From an uncultured Chloroflexia bacterium (lineage in GTDB: Bacteria > Chloroflexota > Limnocylindria > Limnocylindrales > CSP1-4), in the NCBI GenBank assembly GCA_963712745.1, contig CAVQJC010000002.1, forward strand, positions 96,001 through 160,000: DNA of 64,000 bases, written 5' to 3'. The position numbers and the translations under genes were made by a program. Below are positions 5,058 through 29,998 of this stretch, in pieces. Each line of letters begins with the position of its first letter. Position 1 is the first letter of the stretch. Below the pieces are notes generated by a model. It was given only the letters and a program-made list of their open reading frames with translations. It was not told the DNA's origin and searched no databases.

Positions 5058-7298
5058 TCAGGTGTCGCGAGCACCCAGGACGACAGCTGTCATGGCGGCC
5101 GGGTCGATGAGCCCGGCCCGTACCGCATGCTCCACAGCTTCAGCGCGCGTGGTCGCATCGAGCTTCCGATAGAGAGACATCACGTGGGTCTTGACGGTGT
5201 TCTCGGAGATGTGCAGGCGGTCGCCGATCTCACTGAACTTGAGATGCGTGGCCAGCATGGGGACGATGCGCAGCTCCGCCCCGGTCAGCGTCGACGCTCC
5301 CACCGAACCGCTGCGCAACTCGACCAGCTGGGCGCGGATCTCCTCGACCTCACCGTTGAGCATGCCCACATCGGGACGACGATGGAGGATGTCCCCGATC
5401 TCGAGGGCCAACGTCCTGGCGCCGGGCACGTCAGCCAGCGAGAGACGTGCACGAGCCAATTCGAGGCGGGTGATGAGCGCCAGCCCCGGCAAGGCCCACG
5501 TGAGCTGGGGCCGCAGGTTTTGCGCGTGGGCCAATCGGCGTCTGGCCTCGTCGGGTGCATCCATCGCGATGGCGACCCTGGCTGACAGTGCATCCTGGAA
5601 CGCCTGCGGGCCCTGCTCACCGAGCGCACCGATACGCCGGATCTCGTCCGCCGCATCCAGGAGATCACGAGCAGCGGAGATGTCCGAGCGGGCGAGCGCC
5701 AGCCGGGCCCGCAGTCCAAGGGCTATCGCTCGGGCATTGGGGGCGGCGCCCACGATGGCCCGCTCCCCACCGATGCTCGAAAGCACCGCCTCAGCCTGGT
5801 CGTCCTCGCCCTCGAGGAGCAAGGCGAAGCCGAGGGCAAGCCGTGTGGGACGCCACCAGGGGTGGGCGGGCGGGATGAGCTCACAGGCCAGTGCACCATC
5901 GACAAGCGACTGCGCCGCACCCCGCTCGCAGAACAGACTACGTACGAGCGCCTGCCAGCCATCGACTCCCGGGTCACCATCAGTGGTCCGGCCCCGCGGT
6001 TCCATCGCGTACAGGGCGCTGGCGAAGCGCTCCGCACGCTCGGCCTCTCCGCTCATGGCCAGAGCGATGGCTCCCGACATCGCCAACTCCGGCTCCACTC
6101 CCAGCAGGTCGCCTGCTTCGGCCCAGGCCCACCAGGCGTTGAGCGTCCCGGTCCTTCCCTGGCCGTACAGTTGCTGCGTATAGGCGGCCATCATCCGTAC
6201 CGTGGCGGCGTCATCTCCGGCGTGCTGTCGGTAGTGGACCGCTTCCACCGGCATCAGGTTCGCCGCATGCCATTCCGCTGCGCGCGTGCGCAGGAGCGCT
6301 GGCGACGCTGGATCCTCGCGCTCCAAGTTCGCCAACAGCGCCTCACGGATCAAGTCATGGCAGCGATGCCAGCGTTCATCGCCACCGAGAGCCATGACGA
6401 ATGCGTTGGAACGCTCAAGGTCCTGCAGGATCGCTCCTGATCCAGACTGCTGCAACACGAAGTCACACAAGGCCGGCGACATTCGGAGCAGGACCGAAGT
6501 CTGCAGCATGAAGCGCGACTCCTCAGGCGAGAGGTACGCGAGCAGCTCGGTACGCACGTACTCGGTGAACACGCGATCGCGTCCAGCCGGCTGCCAGCTC
6601 GCAACGAGTGACCCCGAGCCCAAGCCCGAGAGCGCAGCCAGACGTAGGCCCGCAGGCCAGCCCTCGCAGCGCTCATTCAGCCGCTCGGCATCCTCCTTCG
6701 TCGCCTCGACGCCGGTCGAGGACAGGAGCTCGAGCGCTTCCGTGTTCGAGAATCGCAGCTCCGCGGCGCCTATCTCCAGCAGGCGACGAGCCAGCCGGAT
6801 CCGGGCCAGGGGGAGCCCGTTCCCAGGCCGCCCGACCAGCATGATCTGCGAGTGCGTCGGCAGACTGAGCGCCAGTGCAGCGAGCACATCCAGCGCCTCC
6901 TGCGAGCTCAGCTCGTGGATGTCGTCGAACACGATGAGGATCGGAGCGATGGTGGACAGCGCAGCCAGCAGACGAGGCATGACGATCGCCCAGATCGACG
7001 CACCAGGCGCCGCCAGCCCGAGCCTCACGGAGGCGTCGATCTCCGACACTCGCTCGATGGCATCCACGAGTTTGGAGACCAGCACGACCGCGTCATCATC
7101 GTGCTGGTCGAGCGTCACCCACACGCTTGGGCGCTCCTGTCGCAGTGCGTGCTGGACCACGAACGTGGTCTTGCCGTAGCCAAGGGGCGCGAGGACAGCG
7201 ACGACCTCGGCAGGACGCAGCGCCGCGAGCAAACTGTGGCGCTCGACGGAACCGGCACGTAGCGGTGGCAGGAACGCGGTGCCAGCCCTGCGTTTCAT
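5058..7298 (-). CDS. MalT-like LuxR-family regulator
   Basis: Walker A APLGYGKTT, Walker B LIVFDD, CEGWPAGLRL, C-terminal LuxR HTH (FSEIGDRLHISENTVKTH..SLYRKL). Confidence 0.92.
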   Translation of the reverse strand: MKRRAGTAFLPPLRAGSVERHSLLAALRPAEVVAVLAPLGYGKTTFVVQHALRQERPSVWVTLDQHDDDAVVLVSKLVDAIERVSEIDASVRLGLAAPGASIWAIVMPRLLAALSTIAPILIVFDDIHELSSQEALDVLAALALSLPTHSQIMLVGRPGNGLPLARIRLARRLLEIGAAELRFSNTEALELLSSTGVEATKEDAERLNERCEGWPAGLRLAALSGLGSGSLVASWQPAGRDRVFTEYVRTELLAYLSPEESRFMLQTSVLLRMSPALCDFVLQQSGSGAILQDLERSNAFVMALGGDERWHRCHDLIREALLANLEREDPASPALLRTRAAEWHAANLMPVEAVHYRQHAGDDAATVRMMAAYTQQLYGQGRTGTLNAWWAWAEAGDLLGVEPELAMSGAIALAMSGEAERAERFASALYAMEPRGRTTDGDPGVDGWQALVRSLFCERGAAQSLVDGALACELIPPAHPWWRPTRLALGFALLLEGEDDQAEAVLSSIGGERAIVGAAPNARAIALGLRARLALARSDISAARDLLDAADEIRRIGALGEQGPQAFQDALSARVAIAMDAPDEARRRLAHAQNLRPQLTWALPGLALITRLELARARLSLADVPGARTLALEIGDILHRRPDVGMLNGEVEEIRAQLVELRSGSVGASTLTGAELRIVPMLATHLKFSEIGDRLHISENTVKTHVMSLYRKLDATTRAEAVEHAVRAGLIDPAAMTAVVLGARDT

Positions 7299-17677: not shown

Positions 17678-18997
17678 TTACGTTGCGCTGATGCGCTCGC
17701 CCAGCCGGGGCTGCAGCACCTCCGGCACCACGACCGAGCCGTCGCTCTGCTGGTAGACCTCGAGGATGGCTGCGACGACGCGCGCCAGGGCCAGGCCGGA
17801 GCCGTTGAGCGTGTGCAGCACCTCAGGCCTGGCCCCGGGTTCCGGCCGCCAGCGGATGGACATGCGCCGAGCCTGGTAGTCGCGGAAGTTGGAGACCGAG
17901 CTGACCTCCAGCCAATCCTCCACGCCCGGAGCCCAGACCTCCAAGTCGTACTTCTTGGCCTGGGTGAAGCCCATGTCGCCGGTGGCCATGAGCTTGACCC
18001 GATACGGCAGCCCCAGCTTCTGCAGGCAGACCTCGGCGCGCTGGGTCATCCACTCGAGCGTGTCGTTGGAGTCCTCCGGCTTGACGAAGGCGACCATCTC
18101 GACCTTGTCGAATTGGTGCACACGCAGGATGCCCCGGGTCTTGGCCCCGGCCGCACCAGCTTCCCGCCGGAAACAGGGCGAATAGGCCACGTAGTGGATG
18201 GGCAGATCCACAGCCTCGACGATCTCGTCGCGGTGGATGTTCGTGACGGGCACCTCCGCGGTCGGCACCAGGTACAGGTCGTCGCGCGTGACCACGTACA
18301 TCTGATCTTCCTTGTCCGGGATCTGGCCGGTACCGCGGGCCGAGTCCTCGTTGACCACCACCGGCGGCCAGACCTCGGTCATGCCGTGCTCGTGGGTGTG
18401 CAGGTCAAGGAAGAAGTCGATGAGCGCGCGCTGCAGCGCCGCACCGGCGCCCTTGTACAGCGGCCAGCCGGAGCCCGTGATCTTGGCGCCGGCTGCGAGG
18501 TCGATCATGCCCAGGGACTCGGCCACCTCCCAGTGCGGCTTGCGGGCCCAGCCTTCTTCTGCCTCCCTGGCCGGCTCCTCGTGCGGCGTGACCGGTTCAC
18601 CCCAGGTGCGCACGATCCGGCTGGCCTCCTCGCCGCCCTCGGGGACATCAGGATCGGGTGGGTTGGGGATGCGCAGGAGCAGGTCGTCGAGGCGGCCACC
18701 GATCTCAGCCAGCTGGGCCTCCATGCCGCTGATCTCGGCACTGATCCAGTTGGACTGCTGCTTGAGCTGTGAGACGCGCGGGCCGTCGGGCTGCTCGCCG
18801 CTCTTGATGGCGACGCCGATCGACTCGGAGATCTGCTTCTTCTGGGCGCGCAGCGTATCGGTCCGGCCCAGCAGTTCACGTCGCTCAGCATCGATGACCA
18901 GCGCCTGGTCGACCAGCGTCGGATCCTCGCCCTTGGCCACGCAGCCCTTGCGGATGACGGCCGTGTCTTCGCGCAGTCGTGCCGGTCCGACGCTCAT
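17678..18997 (-). CDS. serS: Serine--tRNA ligase
   Basis: LVPTAEVP, CFRREAG, GILRVHQFDKVEM, EVSSVSN, HTLNGSGLA. Confidence 0.98.
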   Translation of the reverse strand: MSVGPARLREDTAVIRKGCVAKGEDPTLVDQALVIDAERRELLGRTDTLRAQKKQISESIGVAIKSGEQPDGPRVSQLKQQSNWISAEISGMEAQLAEIGGRLDDLLLRIPNPPDPDVPEGGEEASRIVRTWGEPVTPHEEPAREAEEGWARKPHWEVAESLGMIDLAAGAKITGSGWPLYKGAGAALQRALIDFFLDLHTHEHGMTEVWPPVVVNEDSARGTGQIPDKEDQMYVVTRDDLYLVPTAEVPVTNIHRDEIVEAVDLPIHYVAYSPCFRREAGAAGAKTRGILRVHQFDKVEMVAFVKPEDSNDTLEWMTQRAEVCLQKLGLPYRVKLMATGDMGFTQAKKYDLEVWAPGVEDWLEVSSVSNFRDYQARRMSIRWRPEPGARPEVLHTLNGSGLALARVVAAILEVYQQSDGSVVVPEVLQPRLGERISAT

Positions 18998-24162: not shown

Positions 24163-24615
24163 CTACTCCACGATCCAGGCGTCGATGGCACGCTCGTAGT
24201 CGAGCAACTCGGCGTCGTCGAACCAGAGGGCCAGTTCGGCGGCGGCGTTCTCGGAGCTGTCCGAAGCGTGGACGATGTTCATGCCGGTCTCGAGCGCGAA
24301 GTCACCGCGAATCGACCCGGGCGCGGCCTCGTTGGGGCGGGTGGCGCCGTTGATGGCGCGGCAGACCTCGATGGCCTTGGGACCTTCGACCGCCATGGCC
24401 ACGAGCGGGCCGGAGGTGATGAACTCGATGAGGCCGGCGAAGAACGGCTTGTCCGAGTGCACCGCGTAGTGGCGCTCGGCGAGCGAGCGCTCGGCCTGCA
24501 TGAGCTTGAGGCCGGCGACACGCAGGCCGCGCGCCTCGTAGCGATCGATGACGCGGCCGATGAGGGCGCGCTGAACGCCGTCGGGCTTGATCAGGATGAG
24601 GGTTCGCTCGCTCAC
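24163..24615 (-). CDS. ndk: Nucleoside diphosphate kinase
   Basis: ERTLILIKPDGVQR, GSIRGDF, NIVHASDS. Confidence 0.98.
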   Translation of the reverse strand: MSERTLILIKPDGVQRALIGRVIDRYEARGLRVAGLKLMQAERSLAERHYAVHSDKPFFAGLIEFITSGPLVAMAVEGPKAIEVCRAINGATRPNEAAPGSIRGDFALETGMNIVHASDSSENAAAELALWFDDAELLDYERAIDAWIVE

Positions 24616-26309
24616 ATGGGCTCCTTCGATGACGGCCCTTGACCCAGGGCCTGGTGCGCTGTTTGGTAGGCCGCGGCCGCCTCGGTGTCGCGTCCGAGGA
24701 AGCGGTAGGCATCACCTCTGACGAGATGGATGGCCGCCAGGTCGGCGCTGCCGGGAGGGGCGGCGGAAGCGGCTCGGTCGGCTGCCGACAGGATGATAGG
24801 GGCCAGCGCCGGGTCCAGCCGCAGGAGCACGGCCAGTCGCTGGACGGCCGCGCGGATGTCGCCGGCATCGAGGGCACGGTCGACAGTCTCGAGTTCCGCA
24901 CCGGCGAGGCGTCCGCTAATGACCACCGCGCCGGTACTGCTGGCACCGCCCGGCAGCATCGGTCCGCCACGGCCAACGGGCACGGGGAGCGGGGCCGTGA
25001 GCGGAGCCGGGATCGGCTGGACGATGGGCTCGAGTCGCCAGGTCTCGGGGGTAGGCGCCGTGACCTCGCTGCCGCCGGCCAACAGGCCCCAGTGGCCGGG
25101 CTCTGCCGCCCCGGTCATCATCCAGCCCTCGTCGGCCGGGGGCCAGGCCTGGCTGCGCGGCTCCAGTGCGAAGAGGACGTCGATGGCGCCGCCGACTCGC
25201 TCCTGTACCGACACTGCGGTGGTTCGAGCGTCGGCGTCCTGTTCGCTGCCGGCCAGTTCCTCGGCCAGGATCAGGGCAGCCAGGGGCTCGTCGCCGCCCG
25301 ACGCCTGGTGAGCGCGCGCGGCCTCGGCCGCACCCAGGAGGTCCCCGCTGCGCCAGCGCACCTCGGCGAGGTCGGCCATGGCTTCGCGGTCCAGGGTCCC
25401 ATCACCAGCCATGCCCTCGAGCCGGGCCCGCGACAGCGTGAGCAGGCCTCCACGAAGGTGTACGCGCGCGAGGCGTGCGTCCGCGGAGCGGCTCGCGACC
25501 GCGGCCTGGTCGTCCGTGGGGCCGGGGAGCGGCGCATCGGACGTCGCCGCCGGCATCGTCAGCGGCACCGAGCCTCCGGGGCGTGGACGCGATGGAGCCG
25601 GTCGAGGTCCCGACGGCTCGGGCGCAGCAGGTGGCGCAGGCCGCGCAGGCGGAGACGGACGCGCCGTCCCAGGAGCCGGCGGCATCGGAGCGGAGCGGGT
25701 CATGCCCGGTGGCGGTGGCGGCCCGGCGTACCGCGGGGGCGGCGGGCCTGGATATGCACCCGGCGCCGGGCCGGGGTACGGGCCGGGCGGCGGCATGGCA
25801 CCCGACGGTGTCATGGCACCCCGCGGTGGCATGCCGGGGCCACGTGCGACGTTGGGTGGCGGCGGCATGCCGGGGCCCATGGGCATGCCTGGACGCGGCG
25901 GCATCGGACGGCCCGCCGGTGGCGGACCCGGCGGCATGGGACCCGGTAGCCCCGCGGCGGGTGGCATGGGACCGGGTGGCATGGGACCGGGTGGCATGCG
26001 CGCGGGTGGCATGCGCGCGGGCGACACGGGCGTGGGGCCGCCCGGCTGCCCAGGCGGGGCCGGCGTGCCGGGCTGGGTCGTGGCGTCCGGCTCAGGCGGG
26101 AACCCTGATGGCGTCGCGTCGTCCGACTCGGCGATCGGGCCAGGCTCGGCCGCGCTGCCTGATTCATTCGAGACGCCCGGATCAGGCCCCTCGGCCGGGC
26201 TGCTCGGCTCGTTTCGGACAACCGGATCAGGCCCCTCGGCCGCAAGATCCCCCTTGGGCCAGTCGGCCGGCTGCTTCGGCCCTTCCCGCTTGGGCTGTTC
26301 CTCACTCAT
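24612..26309 (-). CDS. Hypothetical protein: Pro/Met-rich disordered N-terminal half, helical TPR-like C-terminal half
   Basis: 4-nt overlaps with both neighbours; C-terminal HLVRGDAYRFLGRDTEAAAAY is TPR-like. Confidence 0.75.
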   Translation of the reverse strand: MSEEQPKREGPKQPADWPKGDLAAEGPDPVVRNEPSSPAEGPDPGVSNESGSAAEPGPIAESDDATPSGFPPEPDATTQPGTPAPPGQPGGPTPVSPARMPPARMPPGPMPPGPMPPAAGLPGPMPPGPPPAGRPMPPRPGMPMGPGMPPPPNVARGPGMPPRGAMTPSGAMPPPGPYPGPAPGAYPGPPPPRYAGPPPPPGMTRSAPMPPAPGTARPSPPARPAPPAAPEPSGPRPAPSRPRPGGSVPLTMPAATSDAPLPGPTDDQAAVASRSADARLARVHLRGGLLTLSRARLEGMAGDGTLDREAMADLAEVRWRSGDLLGAAEAARAHQASGGDEPLAALILAEELAGSEQDADARTTAVSVQERVGGAIDVLFALEPRSQAWPPADEGWMMTGAAEPGHWGLLAGGSEVTAPTPETWRLEPIVQPIPAPLTAPLPVPVGRGGPMLPGGASSTGAVVISGRLAGAELETVDRALDAGDIRAAVQRLAVLLRLDPALAPIILSAADRAASAAPPGSADLAAIHLVRGDAYRFLGRDTEAAAAYQTAHQALGQGPSSKEPM

Positions 26310-27568
26310 GGCAGTCGCAAGGCCCCCTCAAGGCTGCCGGCTTCGAGGTTCGGACCGATGACCGCAGCGCACAGGGCTTCGTCGCGGAATAGCCGGCCGG
26401 CCAGTGCCCGGATGTCGTCTGCAGTCACCCCTCGCAACGCCTCGATCACCTCTTCCATCGTCATCACGCGCTCGTGCAGAGCCTCCTGGCTGCCCAGGAA
26501 CGACGACACGGCGCGTGACTCCTCCAGCCTTAGCTCCAGCCGGCCGATCGTGTAGTTGCGAGCTCGTTCGAGCTCTGCGGCCGGAACCGCCTCGTCACGC
26601 AATCGTGCCAGCTCCGAGAGCACGCCCCGGGTCGCCGGTACGACGTCATCGGCATCGACGCCCATGTATACCTGAAGCAGGCCCGTATCAGCGTAGTCCG
26701 TCTGGAATGAGTGCACGTCGTAGGACAGCCCGTCCTCCTCGCGGATCTTCATGAACAGCCGCGAGGACGTGCCGTCTCCGAGGATGGTGTTGAGCAGGTC
26801 CAGCGTCCACTGGTCAGCGTGATCGCGAGGCAGGGCGGGGACACCGATGCACACGTGCGCCTGGGCAGTGTGCCGATGATCGAGTCGCATGCGCTCGAGC
26901 GGGCCTGCCGGTGCCGGCTCGTATGCCTGGGCCACACCGTTCCCACGGCCGAAGTGCCGCTGGACCAAGTCCACGGCTTCGTCGTGGCCGATGTCGCCCG
27001 CCAGCGAAACGACCATGTTGGAGGGCTGGTAGGCGGCAGCCCAGAAGTCGCGGATGTCCACGTCGGTCAGCGAGCGCACCGACTCCTCGTCGCCGGCGAT
27101 CTCCCAGCCCAACGGCGTGTCGCCGAAGAAGGCCTCGTCCCAGATGTTGTAGATGAACTGGGCCGGATCGTCGCGATAGGAGCGGATCTCGTCGACGATG
27201 ATCTCGCGCTCGTGGGCGATGTCCGCGCTGCGGAGTCGCGGGTGCAGTGTCAGCTCCGAGAGGACGTGGACGGCACGATCGGCCTCGCGGATCGGCAGCC
27301 GTGCCCAGTAGACGGTGACTTCGCGATCGGTGGCCGCGTTCGAGCTGCCGCCGACCCCTTCGATGGCGTCCGAGACCTCCCGGGTCGTCACGAGGTCGCG
27401 CGTGCCCTTGAACGTGATGTGCTCCATGAAGTGCGCGAGGCCCGACTTCGCGCGCGTCTCGCCGCGTGAGCCGACCATGACGTACACGGCCACCGACAGC
27501 GAGCGCATGCCGGGCAGACGGGCGGTGATGACGCGCGGCCCATCGGGCAGCTCGGTACGTTCGAACAT
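26306..27568 (-). CDS. M16 (pitrilysin-family) zinc peptidase
   Basis: GLAHFMEH (HxxEH), SSRLF..IRE..GLSY. Confidence 0.95.
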   Translation of the reverse strand: MFERTELPDGPRVITARLPGMRSLSVAVYVMVGSRGETRAKSGLAHFMEHITFKGTRDLVTTREVSDAIEGVGGSSNAATDREVTVYWARLPIREADRAVHVLSELTLHPRLRSADIAHEREIIVDEIRSYRDDPAQFIYNIWDEAFFGDTPLGWEIAGDEESVRSLTDVDIRDFWAAAYQPSNMVVSLAGDIGHDEAVDLVQRHFGRGNGVAQAYEPAPAGPLERMRLDHRHTAQAHVCIGVPALPRDHADQWTLDLLNTILGDGTSSRLFMKIREEDGLSYDVHSFQTDYADTGLLQVYMGVDADDVVPATRGVLSELARLRDEAVPAAELERARNYTIGRLELRLEESRAVSSFLGSQEALHERVMTMEEVIEALRGVTADDIRALAGRLFRDEALCAAVIGPNLEAGSLEGALRLP

Positions 27569-27667
27569 CGGGGCGCCATCGTACACGGGCTTGCCCTGTC
27601 GACCCTGCGGCACCCAGTCGCAACGTGCCGGCGCGCGTGTGGGGTGGGCTGCACATCGCGCGGCTGA

Positions 27668-27741
27668 GCCGCGGCGTGGTCGTGTGGTCGCTGAGTTGCG
27701 GGGCTAGGCCGCGGCGTGGTCGTGTGGTCGCTGAGTTGCGG
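27668..27741. repeat. 34-bp direct repeat x2 (period 40)
   Basis: GCCGCGGCGTGGTCGTGTGGTCGCTGAGTTGCGG at 27668 and 27708. Confidence 0.85.
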
Positions 27742-27769
27742 CGCGGTCGCGGGCTCGCTGGGTCTCCAT

Positions 27770-28020
27770 TCCCGTTCAACGGGACAACGCAACCCGTTCG
27801 CGACCCGGACTGATCGGCTCGTTGCGTCAGACGGGAAGAAGGGACCTGATGTCCCGCTCAACGGGACGTCCGCGCGAATCCCACGTCCGGCATGTCCAGA
27901 TGTCCCGCTCAACGGGACGTCCGCGCGAATCCCACGTCCGGCATGTCCAGATGTCCCGCTCAACGGGACGTCCGCGCGAATCCCACGTCCGGCATGTCCA
28001 GATGTCCCGCTCAACGGGAC
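27770..28020. repeat. Left dyad array (TCCCGYTCARCGGGA), including a 51-bp tandem repeat x3.4
   Basis: Dyads at 27770, 27822 (degenerate), 27852, 27903, 27954 and 28005; identical 51-bp units across 27848-28020. Confidence 0.9.
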
Positions 28021-28113
28021 AACGGCTCTGCCGAATGGTCGGCCCAGCCAGGACCGGTTCGCCGATCGCCCTGAACGACGACCTTGGGTGACGGCCGGGG
28101 GGAGGGCGAGACC

Positions 28114-28767
28114 CTAGAGGAGGATGACCGAGTCTCCGCCAGGATCCCGAGAAGCCGCCAGTCGCTCGAGTGCGATCGCACCGGGGACTGGGAAGTCGGC
28201 ATGGAAGCCCGCGCCGGCCCCTCGCATGAAGGCACGGTTGTGCCGCGTGTCCGAGAGAAGGAGGATGAGGTGGTCGACTCCACCGTCGCGGCGCTTCAGC
28301 ACCAGGCGGCGCTGCAACGCCTGAGAGTCGCGCGCCCGCGTCTCCGCCTCCACGCCGATCCGCACGGGCGGCATACGGATGAGCGCGTCCCACGCCCTGC
28401 GGTCCCGCACGTTCGGCAAGGGGACCTCCGTCTGCCACAGGATCTCCTCCCCAAGGCGAACCCGCAGTCGCTCGAGCAGGGCCAGGTGGGCACGGTCGCG
28501 CAGCGCGTCGCCACCGGGGTAGGCGCGCACTCGGAGGTCGAGTCCGACCGCGGCCGCGGCTCGAACGAAGTCTGTCAGCGGCAGGAACGGCGATTGGCCT
28601 CGCTCGAGCCGACTCCAGGCCGAGACGGACTTGCCGACCGCGCCACTCACGGAGCGCTGGCTCAGGTTCCGGTCCAGCCGGGCCTCTCGTATCTCCCGGC
28701 CGAGGTCCATGACGATCAGGCGGGCGACCCTTCGCGCCCGGTCGTCGCTGCGCTCATGTCCTGACAT
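28114..28767 (-). CDS. XRE-type HTH fused to a PD-(D/E)xK/DUF559-like putative nuclease domain
   Basis: GREIREARLDRNLSQRSVS..VGKSVSAWSRLERG HTH; C-terminal WQTEVPL...AWDAL...IGVEAETR. Confidence 0.75.
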   Translation of the reverse strand: MSGHERSDDRARRVARLIVMDLGREIREARLDRNLSQRSVSGAVGKSVSAWSRLERGQSPFLPLTDFVRAAAAVGLDLRVRAYPGGDALRDRAHLALLERLRVRLGEEILWQTEVPLPNVRDRRAWDALIRMPPVRIGVEAETRARDSQALQRRLVLKRRDGGVDHLILLLSDTRHNRAFMRGAGAGFHADFPVPGAIALERLAASRDPGGDSVILL

Positions 28768-28928
28768 GGGTGCGATGGTGACGGTCGGCCCTTACCTGGC
28801 GCTTCACTCGACCGTATCCGGGTGCATGTCTACATTGCGTGTCCTGGGTCGAAGCAGTTGGCGTGTTCCTCCTCGCAGGCCGGTGTCAGGCGGCGAGGAG
28901 GTCTCGTCCAGGGGCTTGACCGGCGCGT

Positions 28929-29076
28929 TCCCGTTCAGCGGGAGAAGTCGACGTCATCGAGCCTGGGTATGCCGCGGCCATTGCGCTCAGTGCAACGGAC
29001 GGACAGTGCGTCCCGTTCAATGGGAATCCAAGACCGAATCGGGAGTTGGTGTGTCGCGTTGTCCCGCTCAGCGAGA
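28929..29076. repeat. Right dyad array (TCCCGYTCARYGRGA)
   Basis: Dyads at 28929, 28981 (degenerate TTGCGCTCAGTGCAA), 29011 and 29062. Confidence 0.8.
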
Positions 29077-29090
29077 ACCGGTTCAGGGGC

Positions 29091-29238
29091 ACGCGGCAGG
29101 GGCCCGCAGGTGCGCGGCAGGGCACGCAGGAAGGGCACGCAGAAGCAGGATGCGCAGGTGCGCGGCAGGGGCCCGCAGGTGCGCGGCAGGGCACGCAGGA
29201 ATGGCACGCAGAAGCAGGATGCGCAGGTGCGCGCGGCA
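29091..29238. repeat. About 69-bp tandem duplication built from GCAGG-rich subunits
   Basis: GCGGCAGGGGCCCGCAGGTGCGCGGCAGGGCACGCAGGAA...GCAGGATGCGCAGGTGC occurs twice. Confidence 0.8.
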
Positions 29239-29285
29239 GACCCAAGTGGCCGCAGGGCTCAGGCCCCGGGCTCCGGCCGTAGGGC

Positions 29286-29828
29286 TCAGGCCTCCGTGCC
29301 GGCCTCCCCGGACTCGGCCGCTGGCGGGCCCTCTCCGGCCGGCGGACCCTCGCCGGCGCCGGAGCCGTCATCGTCGGCTGCCGTGCTCCCGCCCTCGACC
29401 GACTCGGCGGTGTCGAACGCGCCAAGCTCCATCTGGATGTAGCCGGGCGCGACCTGGAACGGCAGCGGCTCCTGCACGACCTCCTCGCCTTCGCCACCCG
29501 GCGGTGGCACGAACTCGAGCACCACGCGCTCATCGCTCTGCACCAGGGTGTAGGTGATGAGCTGATCGGGCCGCGTCTCGAACTCGAGGTGCTCCCAGGA
29601 GGCCACCGAAAGGCAGATGGAGAGGGGCGTGAAGAAGGAGGAGACGTCGGGCCGGTCGGCCACGATGCGCTCGACCCAGCCGGTCCCATGCGACACGACC
29701 TCGCGTCCACGGACGTAGCGGTAGGCCACGGTCTGGCGCAGCAGCGGCCGCAGCAGGTGATAGATGTCGACGGGGTTCGAGACCAGCCCAGCGTTGACGA
29801 AGAACTTGGCCGGCAGCTCCCTCGACAC
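29286..29828 (-). CDS. Hypothetical protein
   Basis: GTG start after GGGAGG; globular-looking N-terminal region with an acidic tail. Confidence 0.75.
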   Translation of the reverse strand: MSRELPAKFFVNAGLVSNPVDIYHLLRPLLRQTVAYRYVRGREVVSHGTGWVERIVADRPDVSSFFTPLSICLSVASWEHLEFETRPDQLITYTLVQSDERVVLEFVPPPGGEGEEVVQEPLPFQVAPGYIQMELGAFDTAESVEGGSTAADDDGSGAGEGPPAGEGPPAAESGEAGTEA

Positions 29829-29998
29829 GCACCCTCCCGCAGCATGCGGCCCGCGTCCGCTTCGGACCATTCGACGACGTCGCGGCCGATGGTATCGCAG
29901 AGTCCTGCCCCTCGGCCCGCCCCCGTCGCACTCCGTCGGACTCCGCCGCAGCCGCCATGCACCGGCCGAGCCTGCCTCACGGGCCTATCATCGGCAGC

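Follow-up and report, generated by a model that had tools for sequence, protein, structure and literature searches.

What purpose is served by a gene for a small DNA-binding protein that lies between two arrays of a short palindrome, in the midst of housekeeping genes, is the question raised by a locus in the 64,000-nt stretch analyzed here (the window: positions 96,001 to 160,000, forward strand, of contig CAVQJC010000002.1, assembly GCA_963712745.1, from an uncultured Chloroflexia bacterium). The gene encodes a 217-residue protein with an XRE-type helix-turn-helix (HTH) and a C-terminal domain for which a nuclease-like, PD-(D/E)xK-like fold had been suggested, and 15-bp dyads with the perfect form TCCCGYTCARCGGGA lie on both sides of it. 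An earlier note, made from the letters of the window, had proposed either a mobile system analogous to repetitive extragenic palindromic (REP) sequences and their associated tyrosine transposases (RAYTs), or an autoregulated nuclease. The feature is real and conserved, and it is apparently undescribed, as literature searches found no description of this family combining the HTH and the C-terminal domain. It looks like an undescribed DNA-protein system, a gene-plus-array module that recurs at housekeeping loci of a Chloroflexota group.

The pattern TCCCGTTNAACGGGA, with up to three mismatches, matched the window ten times, against 2.32 matches expected (standard deviation 1.63), and none of 100 shuffled sequences reached that number. 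Eight of the matches fall within 27770-29076 and the remaining two (27403 and 55612), with three mismatches each, are at chance level; a stricter pattern, TCCCG[CT]TNA[AG]CGGGA, gave six matches, all of them in 27770-28929. The dyad is confined, as had been claimed, to both flanks of the gene at 28114-28767 on the minus strand, all the good matches in the window lying in 27770-29076, and no second array of same-arm, rare-arm dyads was found elsewhere in the 64 kb. The offsets of 0, 52, 82 and 133 bp are likewise the same on both flanks (Table 1). The earlier observation was in fact understated: each flank has the four sites, but the left array has two further perfect ones, at 27954 and 28005, because a perfect 51-bp tandem repeat occupies 27848-28020. 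Each unit of this repeat holds one dyad, and the repeat is a recent expansion of the left array. Regarding the site at offset 52, which had been considered degenerate, it does start with TTGCG on both sides, but the right one (28981-28995, TTGCGCTCAGTGCAA) is a near-perfect dyad with other arms, reading TTGCG-CTCAG-TGCAA, and the left one (27822-27836) is a hybrid that reads TTGCG-TCAGA-CGGGA. Arms of the TTGCA type belong to paralogues that related genomes have at their rpoD and cyd/feo positions (L004, L012 and L006, the loci of the family being numbered in this way), and the odd third sites hint at possible cross-binding or heterodimers between paralogues. The lack of conservation between dyads was also borne out: when the two arrays were compared at a fixed offset of 1159 bp, identity was 47/60 inside the four sites and 45/131 (34%) outside them, with random segments giving 28.7% ± 4.4%. 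Since the DNA between dyads is at chance identity, the duplication of the array must be old.

A search in which 8000 candidates were scored yielded 577 relatives of the protein at the threshold of E<=1e-3. Most of the best 120 are 217 residues long, and the names of these are all 'helix-turn-helix transcriptional regulator', from Chloroflexota, Anaerolineae or Candidatus Limnocylindrales; the family was seen solely in 'Limnocylindria' records of the Chloroflexota. A genome scan for the family gene gave 124 loci, the best 80 of which were kept and form, with the window, the set of 81 loci considered hereafter. Across loci, the dyads are 15 bp long, with 5-bp arms and a variable 5-bp centre, and they cluster at 700 bp or less from the family gene. 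In intergenic gaps of like size (at least 250 bp), at least four same-arm dyads were present in 13 of 69 loci and in none of 129 other gaps, which supports the linkage of dyads to this gene family. Clusters of same-arm dyads with the 5+5+5 geometry (Poisson p<1e-4) were found in 23/81 loci versus 2/290 control windows, and when spacers of 1-7 were allowed (p<1e-6) the figures were 38/81 and 6/230, a few of them corresponding to microsatellites. Among the calls at p<1e-6, those of L007, L023, L029, L065, L077 and L078 are plain microsatellites with a period of 11-21 bp; these six loci, along with L002, L019, L022, L032, L038, L042, L045 and L049, make up the 14 loci omitted from the tables of arms, which follow the p<1e-6 selection and to which L029 and L038 were returned with hand-set GTGC arms. 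Loci with clear arrays (12.6 kb each) have between zero and two copies of the arms away from the family gene.

Dyad columns were better conserved than other columns in five out of five orthologous pairs: 49/60 versus 139/270 in L004 and L012, 75/90 versus 228/330 in L056 and L064, 84/105 versus 238/315 in L010 and L014, 59/77 versus 95/223 in L028 and L046, and 58/90 versus 183/410 in L060 and L070. Dyads thereby appear to be under selection. Colinear arrays in direct orientation are present on both flanks of the gene in the window, L009, L021 and L002, and the upstream array of the orthologous locus L021 has an independent run of four 50-52-bp repeats. In L002, the closest relative on a long contig, three non-identical dyads (TGCCG..CGGGC, TGTCG..CGACA and GCCCG..CGGCA) follow in the same order on both flanks, at 5734-5907 and 6948-7180, and gene conversion between these arrays is suggested by the near identity of both copies over ~33 bp around the first dyad.

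The arms are constant within a locus and each locus has, so to speak, its own. They are TCCCG in the window, L009, L010 and L014 (T/GCCCG in L021), TGCCG or TGCCA in L001, L005 and L017, and TTGCA in L004, L006, L056, L059 and L064; further types include GTGCG/GTGCA, GAACG, GCTCG/GCTCT, AGCCA, GACCC, TTCCG and TTTCA, among others. Paralogues of one genome also differ, with TGCCG in L005 versus T/GCCCG in L021 of genome CAVPNC, and TCCCG in L009 versus GTGCA in L012 of genome JBBSAV. In a set of 78 family sequences, from which L069 (partial) and L012 and L075 (with internal stops) were left out, positions 46 and 48-51 of the recognition helix are hypervariable, and the arms co-vary with this helix. 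All five loci with [TG]CCCG arms have Lys or Arg at position 46, and such arms are found in none of the 26 loci with another residue at that position; one locus with Lys46, L001, carries TGCCG and not [TG]CCCG. A partial Mantel test, in which distances between arms were compared with those between helices while controlling for C-terminal domain distance, gave r 0.185, a value reached in 2 of 5000 permutations and inflated by common ancestry. As for the excluded sequences, the genes at L012 (3393-4037) and L075 (6001-6629) have one internal stop codon each and may be pseudogenes or assembly errors.

The spacing of the dyads follows the DNA helix. The 136 distances between neighbours in the range of 15-130 bp peak at 51 (24 cases), 61-62 (19), 29-30 (11), 40-42 (10), 81-83 (9) and 92-94 bp (5), all multiples of ~10.2-10.5 bp, i.e. 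whole helical turns, although tandem copies make these counts non-independent. The triple 51-30-51 is found in both arrays of the window (there as 51-30-52), in both of L009, twice in L004, and in L012 and L018, and in more distant loci of the rpoD type the spacing is 61-61-51-30(-61). When nine 51-30-51 modules were aligned, conserved positions were also evident outside the dyads. Counted from the dyad centre, the hexamer CTCGAC, with one mismatch at most, begins at exactly 11 nt in 16 right and 13 left flanks, out of 163 distinct ones on each side, against a background per offset of 1.5 and 1.1, respectively (Poisson 8e-12 and 2e-10); this motif occurs in 16 out of 32 loci, which have seven different types of arms between them. 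In modules with motif-bearing sites at both ends, CTCGAC lies on the inner side of each outer site. The two inner sites are separated by a 15-bp spacer centred on T-G-N-C-A, with the G in 15 and the C in 13 of 20 distinct spacers. Because of the four phased dyads, the inner CTCGAC and the central TGNCA, the cis element is a 147-bp module with two-fold symmetry, S1-CTCGAC ... S2 - TGNCA - S3 ... GTCGAG-S4. The sequence CGGGACAACGC that the outermost sites of the window share in inverted orientation (27780 on the plus strand, its reverse complement at 29056) is indeed present, but its interpretation as a mark of element ends had to be rejected, as it corresponds to this family-wide motif on the inner flank of the outer site of each array.

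The module appears to act at the level of DNA. Non-Watson-Crick pairs between arms (38 G.T, 40 A.C and 143 others) follow the random 1:1:4 ratio, without wobble bias on either strand, and scans of the arrays for Rfam families, tRNAs, promoters and terminators found nothing. Because of the lack of wobble bias and of Rfam matches, together with the constant arms and the helix-following spacing, the data favour duplex DNA, probably recognized by the protein, rather than an element acting at the RNA level.

The protein belongs to the XRE family, with a match to Pfam HTH_31 over residues 21-82 (E 9.2e-11; 42.3 bits versus a cut-off of 27) that holds in all 20 aligned family members tested. According to library and profile matches its HTH resembles those of phage repressors, C-proteins and antitoxins. 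Antitoxin models gave weak matches at the HTH level, all below cut-off, and no toxin family was found among the scanned neighbours, which vary with the context class, so that membership in a type II toxin-antitoxin system finds no support there. The remainder of the protein, residues 86-217, is unmatched in the family libraries used, namely Pfam (window protein and 20 relatives), NCBIfam, PADLOC and PHROGs, and profile searches against the PDB returned only HTH matches or spurious alphaRep matches, with none for this domain. No extra domain was found in 17 longer family proteins that were checked. With a profile of the C-terminal domain alone, the number of representative clusters retrieved was 1119 at E<=1e-3, of which 814 reached 1e-10.

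A lead to the fold of this domain came from the Atlas model of the homologue P0007 (67% identical to the window protein, predicted local distance difference test 0.82). Residues 88-217 of the model gave template modelling (TM) scores of 0.64 over 113 residues with a CoiA_nuc cluster, 0.62 over 114 residues with an McrBC cluster, 0.63 with a CoiA_N/CoiA_nuc cluster and 0.65 with a cluster having 16% Replic_Relax; overall, the named structural neighbours, of the CoiA or McrC type, scored 0.62-0.64 over 113-118 residues in the Atlas. Furthermore, D122, R124, W126, D127, E140, E142, D147, Q149, K158 and D161 are kept in 77-78 of the 78 family members. The nuclease-like nature of the domain has in its favour this fold lead and the conserved acidic, Lys and Gln residues, but no curated sequence family of the superfamily was matched, and the PD-(D/E)xK-like fold should be taken as a lead and not as proof. 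With respect to the catalytic signature, D127 ... E140-A-E142, followed by Q149, K158 and D161, is invariant in 78 of 78 sequences, and the Lys is not at the canonical PD-(D/E)xK position. The E-x-E variant of this signature occurs in BamHI. The nearest named structural neighbours, as judged from the model, would be the CoiA/McrC-type nucleases, which, however, have no sequence similarity to the domain and differ in partners and biology, the domain being tethered here to a sequence-specific HTH. CoiA is presented in an excerpt of PMC13663708 as a phosphodiesterase of the PD-(D/E)XK type whose catalytic sequence is atypical and which nicks branched DNA.

The chromosomal positions of the family are also informative. 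Sorted by neighbour clustering and Pfam, the 81 loci comprise 34 in convergent orientation behind dnaG-rpoD, seven between cydAB and feoC/feoB, four in the context CoaX / 194-aa open reading frame (ORF) / M16 (window, L001, L002 and L021), six between two amidohydrolases, three with isochorismatase / PDH-E1, six with a rhodanese as the only defining neighbour, and 21 in other contexts. Two or three family loci each are present in eight assemblies, among the best 80 of the 124 loci. A quick maximum-likelihood tree was built from 80 rows, without L069. The rpoD context appears in all of its deep clades, and the window is inside a group of ten rows, six cyd/feo and four M16 (Shimodaira-Hasegawa-like approximate likelihood ratio test 81), which adjoins one of 13 rows (11 rpoD and two other), both being part of a starred clade of 23 rows. 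From the conserved contexts and their distribution in the tree it follows that the gene is old, that it has kept stable positions within this lineage, and that it has been copied to new places a limited number of times. The same CoaX/194-aa/M16 position is occupied by gene and arrays in three other genomes, with proteins 63-71% identical, and no relative was found on 72,556 plasmid records (tblastn) or 50,697 phage records; recent mobility is not sustained by these results.

Taking together the linkage of arrays and gene, the co-variation of arms and recognition helix, the conserved phasing and the conserved secondary motif, we give an even chance to the locus being a self-contained protein-site module, in which HTH dimers would assemble on one face of the DNA by their own gene and the C-terminal domain would contact, and possibly nick, CTCGAC. 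The steps we infer are binding, oligomerization, contact of the C-terminal domain with CTCGAC, and catalysis. A fast-evolving XRE-type HTH is fused to an invariant, putatively PD-(D/E)xK-like domain, and each family member would read its private 15-bp dyad as a dimer, the variable HTH supplying the address; four dimers could join cooperatively on one helix face to form a wrapped higher-order complex in cis, beside the gene that encodes them; the C-terminal domains of the inner subunits at the outer sites may then contact CTCGAC, where they would probably nick or cut under some form of control. Autoregulation, a local roadblock or insulator effect on the neighbours, and a site-specific DNA transaction are the consequences that could be expected. 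Regulatory effects are likely in the window as well, because its two modules, which are in direct orientation, lie ~160-200 bp ahead of the minus-strand starts of the HTH gene and of the M16 peptidase gene (the S4 site of the right module starts 162 bp ahead of the start codon of the HTH gene). The protein may be an autoregulated nuclease, but this description is too narrow, because most relatives have their arrays between convergent genes, in a 3'-3' gap behind rpoD that offers no promoter for regulation.

Several points weigh against this module. Of the 81 loci, roughly a quarter to no more than a half, according to the criterion applied, gave clear arrays, and the close relatives L003, L008 and L011 showed none in the dyad scans. 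Shared ancestry and tandem copies inflate the statistics of co-variation and spacing. The fold of the C-terminal domain comes from the Atlas model of a homologue with 67% identity, with moderate TM scores, and the putative catalytic motif is atypical (D127...E140-A-E142, with K158 in the next predicted helix). It is pure conjecture that the C-terminal domain reads CTCGAC; the N-terminal arm, or a host factor, could bind this motif instead. Finally, the recognition sites remain intact next to what seems to be an active nuclease, which means that any cutting would have to be restrained or limited to nicking.

If the protein-site module proves true, it would be a compact natural system in which the specificity of DNA binding is cleanly separate from a conserved, catalytic-looking domain, and in which specificity has been rewritten many times along with the target sites, thus offering a data set for HTH-DNA co-evolution and a candidate scaffold for re-targetable nickases. 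It would also give a first function to a domain without a named family that is present in those 1119 representative clusters. For an abundant uncultured lineage of soil and freshwater, it leads to the question of why loci with housekeeping genes, the 3' end of dnaG-rpoD among them, keep a private, helically phased nucleoprotein site. A more far-reaching proposal, which we put forward tentatively and consider rather doubtful at present, is that of a new class of address-guided chromosomal DNA-processing modules, with rapidly diversifying HTHs that would address each paralogue to a four-dyad, 147-bp symmetric site of its own, an invariant domain that would nick or cut at CTCGAC, 11-16 bp from the outer dyads, and several orthogonal modules per genome marking fixed loci. 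Those behind rpoD, at cydAB/feo and at M16 would then perform a programmed DNA transaction, for example the start of chromosome transfer or recombination, the excision of an array-gene cassette, or fork arrest, and would represent a naturally modular, re-targetable nuclease chemistry not previously described.

Among the alternatives to the protein-site module, the one that best survives is an ordinary local transcription factor, that is, an XRE repressor that would autoregulate and control an adjacent gene (here the M16 operon) via arrays of operators, with a nuclease-like domain devoted to oligomerization or ligand sensing. We see it as possible but clearly short of an even chance. The position of both modules of the window, upstream of the starts of the HTH gene and M16, speaks for such a regulator, and the cydAB, amidohydrolase and isochorismatase classes have their arrays in divergent promoter gaps; the similarity of the HTH to phage repressors, C-proteins and antitoxins points in the same direction, and orthogonal specificities are common among paralogous regulators. 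However, the largest and deepest class (34/81) has the array in the convergent 3'-3' gap between the stop of the family gene and that of rpoD, where no promoter is expected, and the upstream gaps in this class, often of just 23-117 bp, are array-free. The strict invariance of D, E, K and Q residues, while identity to the window protein falls to 43% among the 78 sequences, would be unusual for a purely structural domain, and the CTCGAC motif and the 147-bp symmetric geometry go beyond the needs of an operator. Even in the case of a plain autoregulator, a 147-bp symmetric module with an invariant flank motif would constitute an unusual operator architecture.

By analogy with known systems, the arrays could also be sites of DNA processing or inheritance (a relaxase/oriT, res/resolvase or centromere analogue) where DNA would be nicked, recombined or captured, with chromosome mobilization, excision of an array-gene cassette, fork arrest or segregation as proposed purposes; this we regard as unlikely. 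The MOBC relaxases (TraX of pAD1, MobC of CloDF13; Replic_Relax, PF13814) are similarly small proteins with an HTH and a C-terminal PD-(D/E)XK-related domain, with an array of short repeats close to their own gene. According to an excerpt of PMC12857230, the HTH is N-terminal and precedes the catalytic domain, and the repeat array near the gene is bound away from the place of nicking. The Atlas leads from the C-terminal domain of P0007 to Replic_Relax clusters (features score 0.76, TM 0.65) go in the same sense, weakly. However, no PF13814 match was obtained with our protein, and hhalign gave a probability of 0.6% against the TraX-like reference of pTEF1 (18114-18899, minus strand), which itself matches PF13814 at 2e-6, and of 1.5-2% against the 24-member alignment A4. 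The HTH is of the XRE type here and winged in MOBC, the repeats are dyads here and direct in MOBC, several orthogonal paralogues coexist per genome, and the context is one of chromosomal housekeeping genes, without a coupling protein or type IV secretion system in the scanned neighbours. More broadly, no coupling protein, type IV secretion system, ParA or serine/tyrosine recombinase was found in the 20 largest neighbour clusters, the upstream ORF of L004 and the scanned ORFs of the window. The housekeeping neighbours, and the absence of relatives in the plasmid and phage records searched, argue against a conjugative or mobilizable location.

Resolution sites offer another parallel. The wrapped complex formed at res depends on the geometry of the site, and direct copies of res flank a DNA segment and adjoin the gene of the binding protein. 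The sites of Tn3/Sin-type serine resolvases are, like the module described here, composite (~114-150 bp), with several dimer dyads at fixed spacing near the gene of the protein that binds them, and two direct copies flank a DNA segment, as the two colinear direct modules bracket the gene in the window, L009, L021 and L002. A 114-bp res site with three dimer sites is described in an excerpt of PMC2602789, and the higher-order resolvase complex in that excerpt and in another from PMC2428073. On the other hand, our protein is not a serine recombinase and there is no transposon context, and the module has two-fold symmetry, its four sites being alike and its flank motif invariant. With respect to partition, the sopC/SopB system of the F plasmid (type Ia) has in common the tandem units of ~4-5 turns with one HTH-dimer inverted repeat each, the location directly downstream of the gene, as sopC follows sopB, and the private specificities; PMC3177203 describes sopC as a run of 12 repeats of 43 bp in direct orientation, every one of which contains an inverted repeat of 16 bp. 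Unlike that system, the one described here has no adjoining gene for a ParA/SopA ATPase, lacks the ParB fold, has a nuclease-like domain in place of the ParB N-terminal domain, and is chromosomal, with 2-3 loci found per genome; no ParA or ParB family was identified among the scanned neighbours, and the protein is of the XRE type. Tandem duplications are frequent beside arrays, which would fit DNA processing, but conserved synteny speaks against frequent excision.

The proposal of a selfish mobile or homing element that spreads gene and repeats in the manner of REPs and RAYTs now seems improbable. RAYTs are HUH/Y1 transposases, and REPs are dispersed genome-wide. The likeness consists of a palindromic repeat that flanks the gene of a protein thought to bind it, here with an HTH and a PD-(D/E)xK-like domain; no Y1_Tnp-type family, as would correspond to an HUH/Y1 (IS200/IS605-like) transposase, was matched by the protein in Pfam, NCBIfam or PHROGs, and the dyads are not dispersed, being confined to the flanks of their own gene in the window and in the loci with clear arrays. 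The presence of a multi-copy family, with two or three loci per assembly in eight assemblies, a limited number of context moves in the tree, always with the arrays included, and the array-gene-array layout with direct repeats could be explained by such an element. Nonetheless, positions are conserved across species (34 rpoD loci, seven cyd/feo, four M16), the chance identity of the DNA between dyads in the window indicates an old duplication, and there are neither a transposase among the scanned ORFs, nor terminal inverted repeats at the ends of the unit, nor plasmid or phage copies in the records searched; moreover, a homing endonuclease would not retain intact targets beside itself. Lastly, an RNA-level element (hairpin repeats in untranslated regions, a small RNA or a CRISPR-like array) or a chance cluster is close to refuted and has the least probability of all, since, even if the dyads could form 5-7-bp hairpins and the 51-bp period of repeat plus spacer is superficially CRISPR-like, the shuffles exclude chance, the arms mispair at the chance ratio without wobble bias on either strand and with no Rfam family, they are constant within a locus at spacings that track the helical repeat of DNA, the units of a tandem run are identical including their 'spacers', the DNA between dyads is conserved between orthologues, and no cas gene was found in the scanned ORFs of the window or in the 20 largest neighbour clusters.

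Table 1. Features of the locus in the window and their coordinates (the sites of each module are named in the direction of the HTH gene).
Feature	Coordinates	Strand	Remarks
Gene of the HTH protein with putative nuclease-like domain, 217 aa	28114..28767	-	HTH, residues 21-82 (nt 28522-28707); C-terminal domain, residues ~86-217 (nt 28117-28512)
Right module, upstream of the gene	28929..29076	.	Four sites, spacing 51-30-52
Right module, S1	29062-29076		
Right module, S2	29011-29025		
Right module, S3	28981-28995		TTGCG/TGCAA
Right module, S4	28929-28943		
Left array, 3' of the HTH gene and 5' of the M16 gene	27770..28019	.	Core module plus two extra S1-type sites
Left core module, S1	27903-27917		Spacing of the core module 51-30-52
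Left core module, S2	27852-27866		
Left core module, S3	27822-27836		Hybrid, TTGCG...CGGGA
Left core module, S4	27770-27784		
Extra S1-type sites, left array	27954-27968, 28005-28019		
Perfect 51-bp tandem repeat, 3.4 copies	27848..28020	.	Tandem Repeats Finder: period 51, 100% matches, score 346
Inner-flank motif, right S4	28944..28952	.	GAAGTCGAC; fits [CG]A[AT]CTCGAC at +8..+16 from the dyad centre
Inner-flank motif, right S1	29053..29061	.	GTCGCGTTG, reverse complement of CAACGCGAC
Inner-flank motif, left S1	27894..27902	.	GTCCAGATG, reverse complement of CATCTGGAC; one mismatch to CTCGAC; recurs in each 51-bp unit
Inner flank, left S4	27785..27793	.	CAACGCAAC, degenerate copy of the motif with two mismatches in the hexamer; CGGGACAACGC of the earlier note
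M16 peptidase gene, conserved downstream neighbour	26306..27613	-	Pfam Peptidase_M16 and Peptidase_M16_C; same neighbour in L001, L002 and L021
194-aa ORF, conserved upstream neighbour	29286..29870	-	Member of cluster C11, together with the ORFs found upstream in L002 and L021

The surroundings of the locus are made up of housekeeping genes (those of SerRS, LysRS, GreA, UppP, Ndk, the M16 peptidase, CoaX, CoaBC, PanB and PanC), and no transposase or integrase family was detected in the 21 ORFs that were scanned around it, over 17.7-40.6 kb, in agreement with what had been noted. The 194-aa ORF had nothing above threshold in Pfam, NCBIfam or PHROGs. Translation of the M16 gene probably starts at the Met at 27568 (MFERT...), 45 nt inside the listed GTG at 27613, because the L021 orthologue starts at the equivalent Met. 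Downstream, a 565-aa ORF (24612-26309, minus strand) has a very proline-rich N-terminal half and matches to TPR at its C-end that are all sub-threshold; it overlaps the M16 stop and the ndk start by four bases each, which suggests that the three genes form one operon. An ORF of 226 aa antisense to the HTH gene (28084-28764, plus strand), which covers it entirely and was preferred by a gene caller based on GC content at third codon positions, was rejected in view of the homology, which favours the minus strand; it is to be considered a high-GC artefact.

Other repeats accompany the arrays. Between the M16 start and the left array (~27660-27742) there are two direct copies of a ~40-bp unit (CCGCGGCGTGGTCGTGTGGTCGCTGAGTTGCGG) unlisted by Tandem Repeats Finder, and the gap that runs from the right array to the stop codon of the 194-aa ORF holds a 69-bp tandem repeat (29092-29233; 2.1 copies, 98%) and a 14-bp repeat (29248-29292; 3.3 copies). 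Unrelated tandem repeats also adjoin the arrays in L004, L013 and L021, and the gaps that bear arrays seem prone to duplication. In L018, a c-di-GMP-II riboswitch match is found at 988-1074, at the gathering score (48.4 versus 47.9), and in three loci of the rpoD context the family gene is preceded, at 2.6-4.7 kb, by a tRNA gene (L004, 3343-3414; L018, 1289-1360; L056, 2253-2324).

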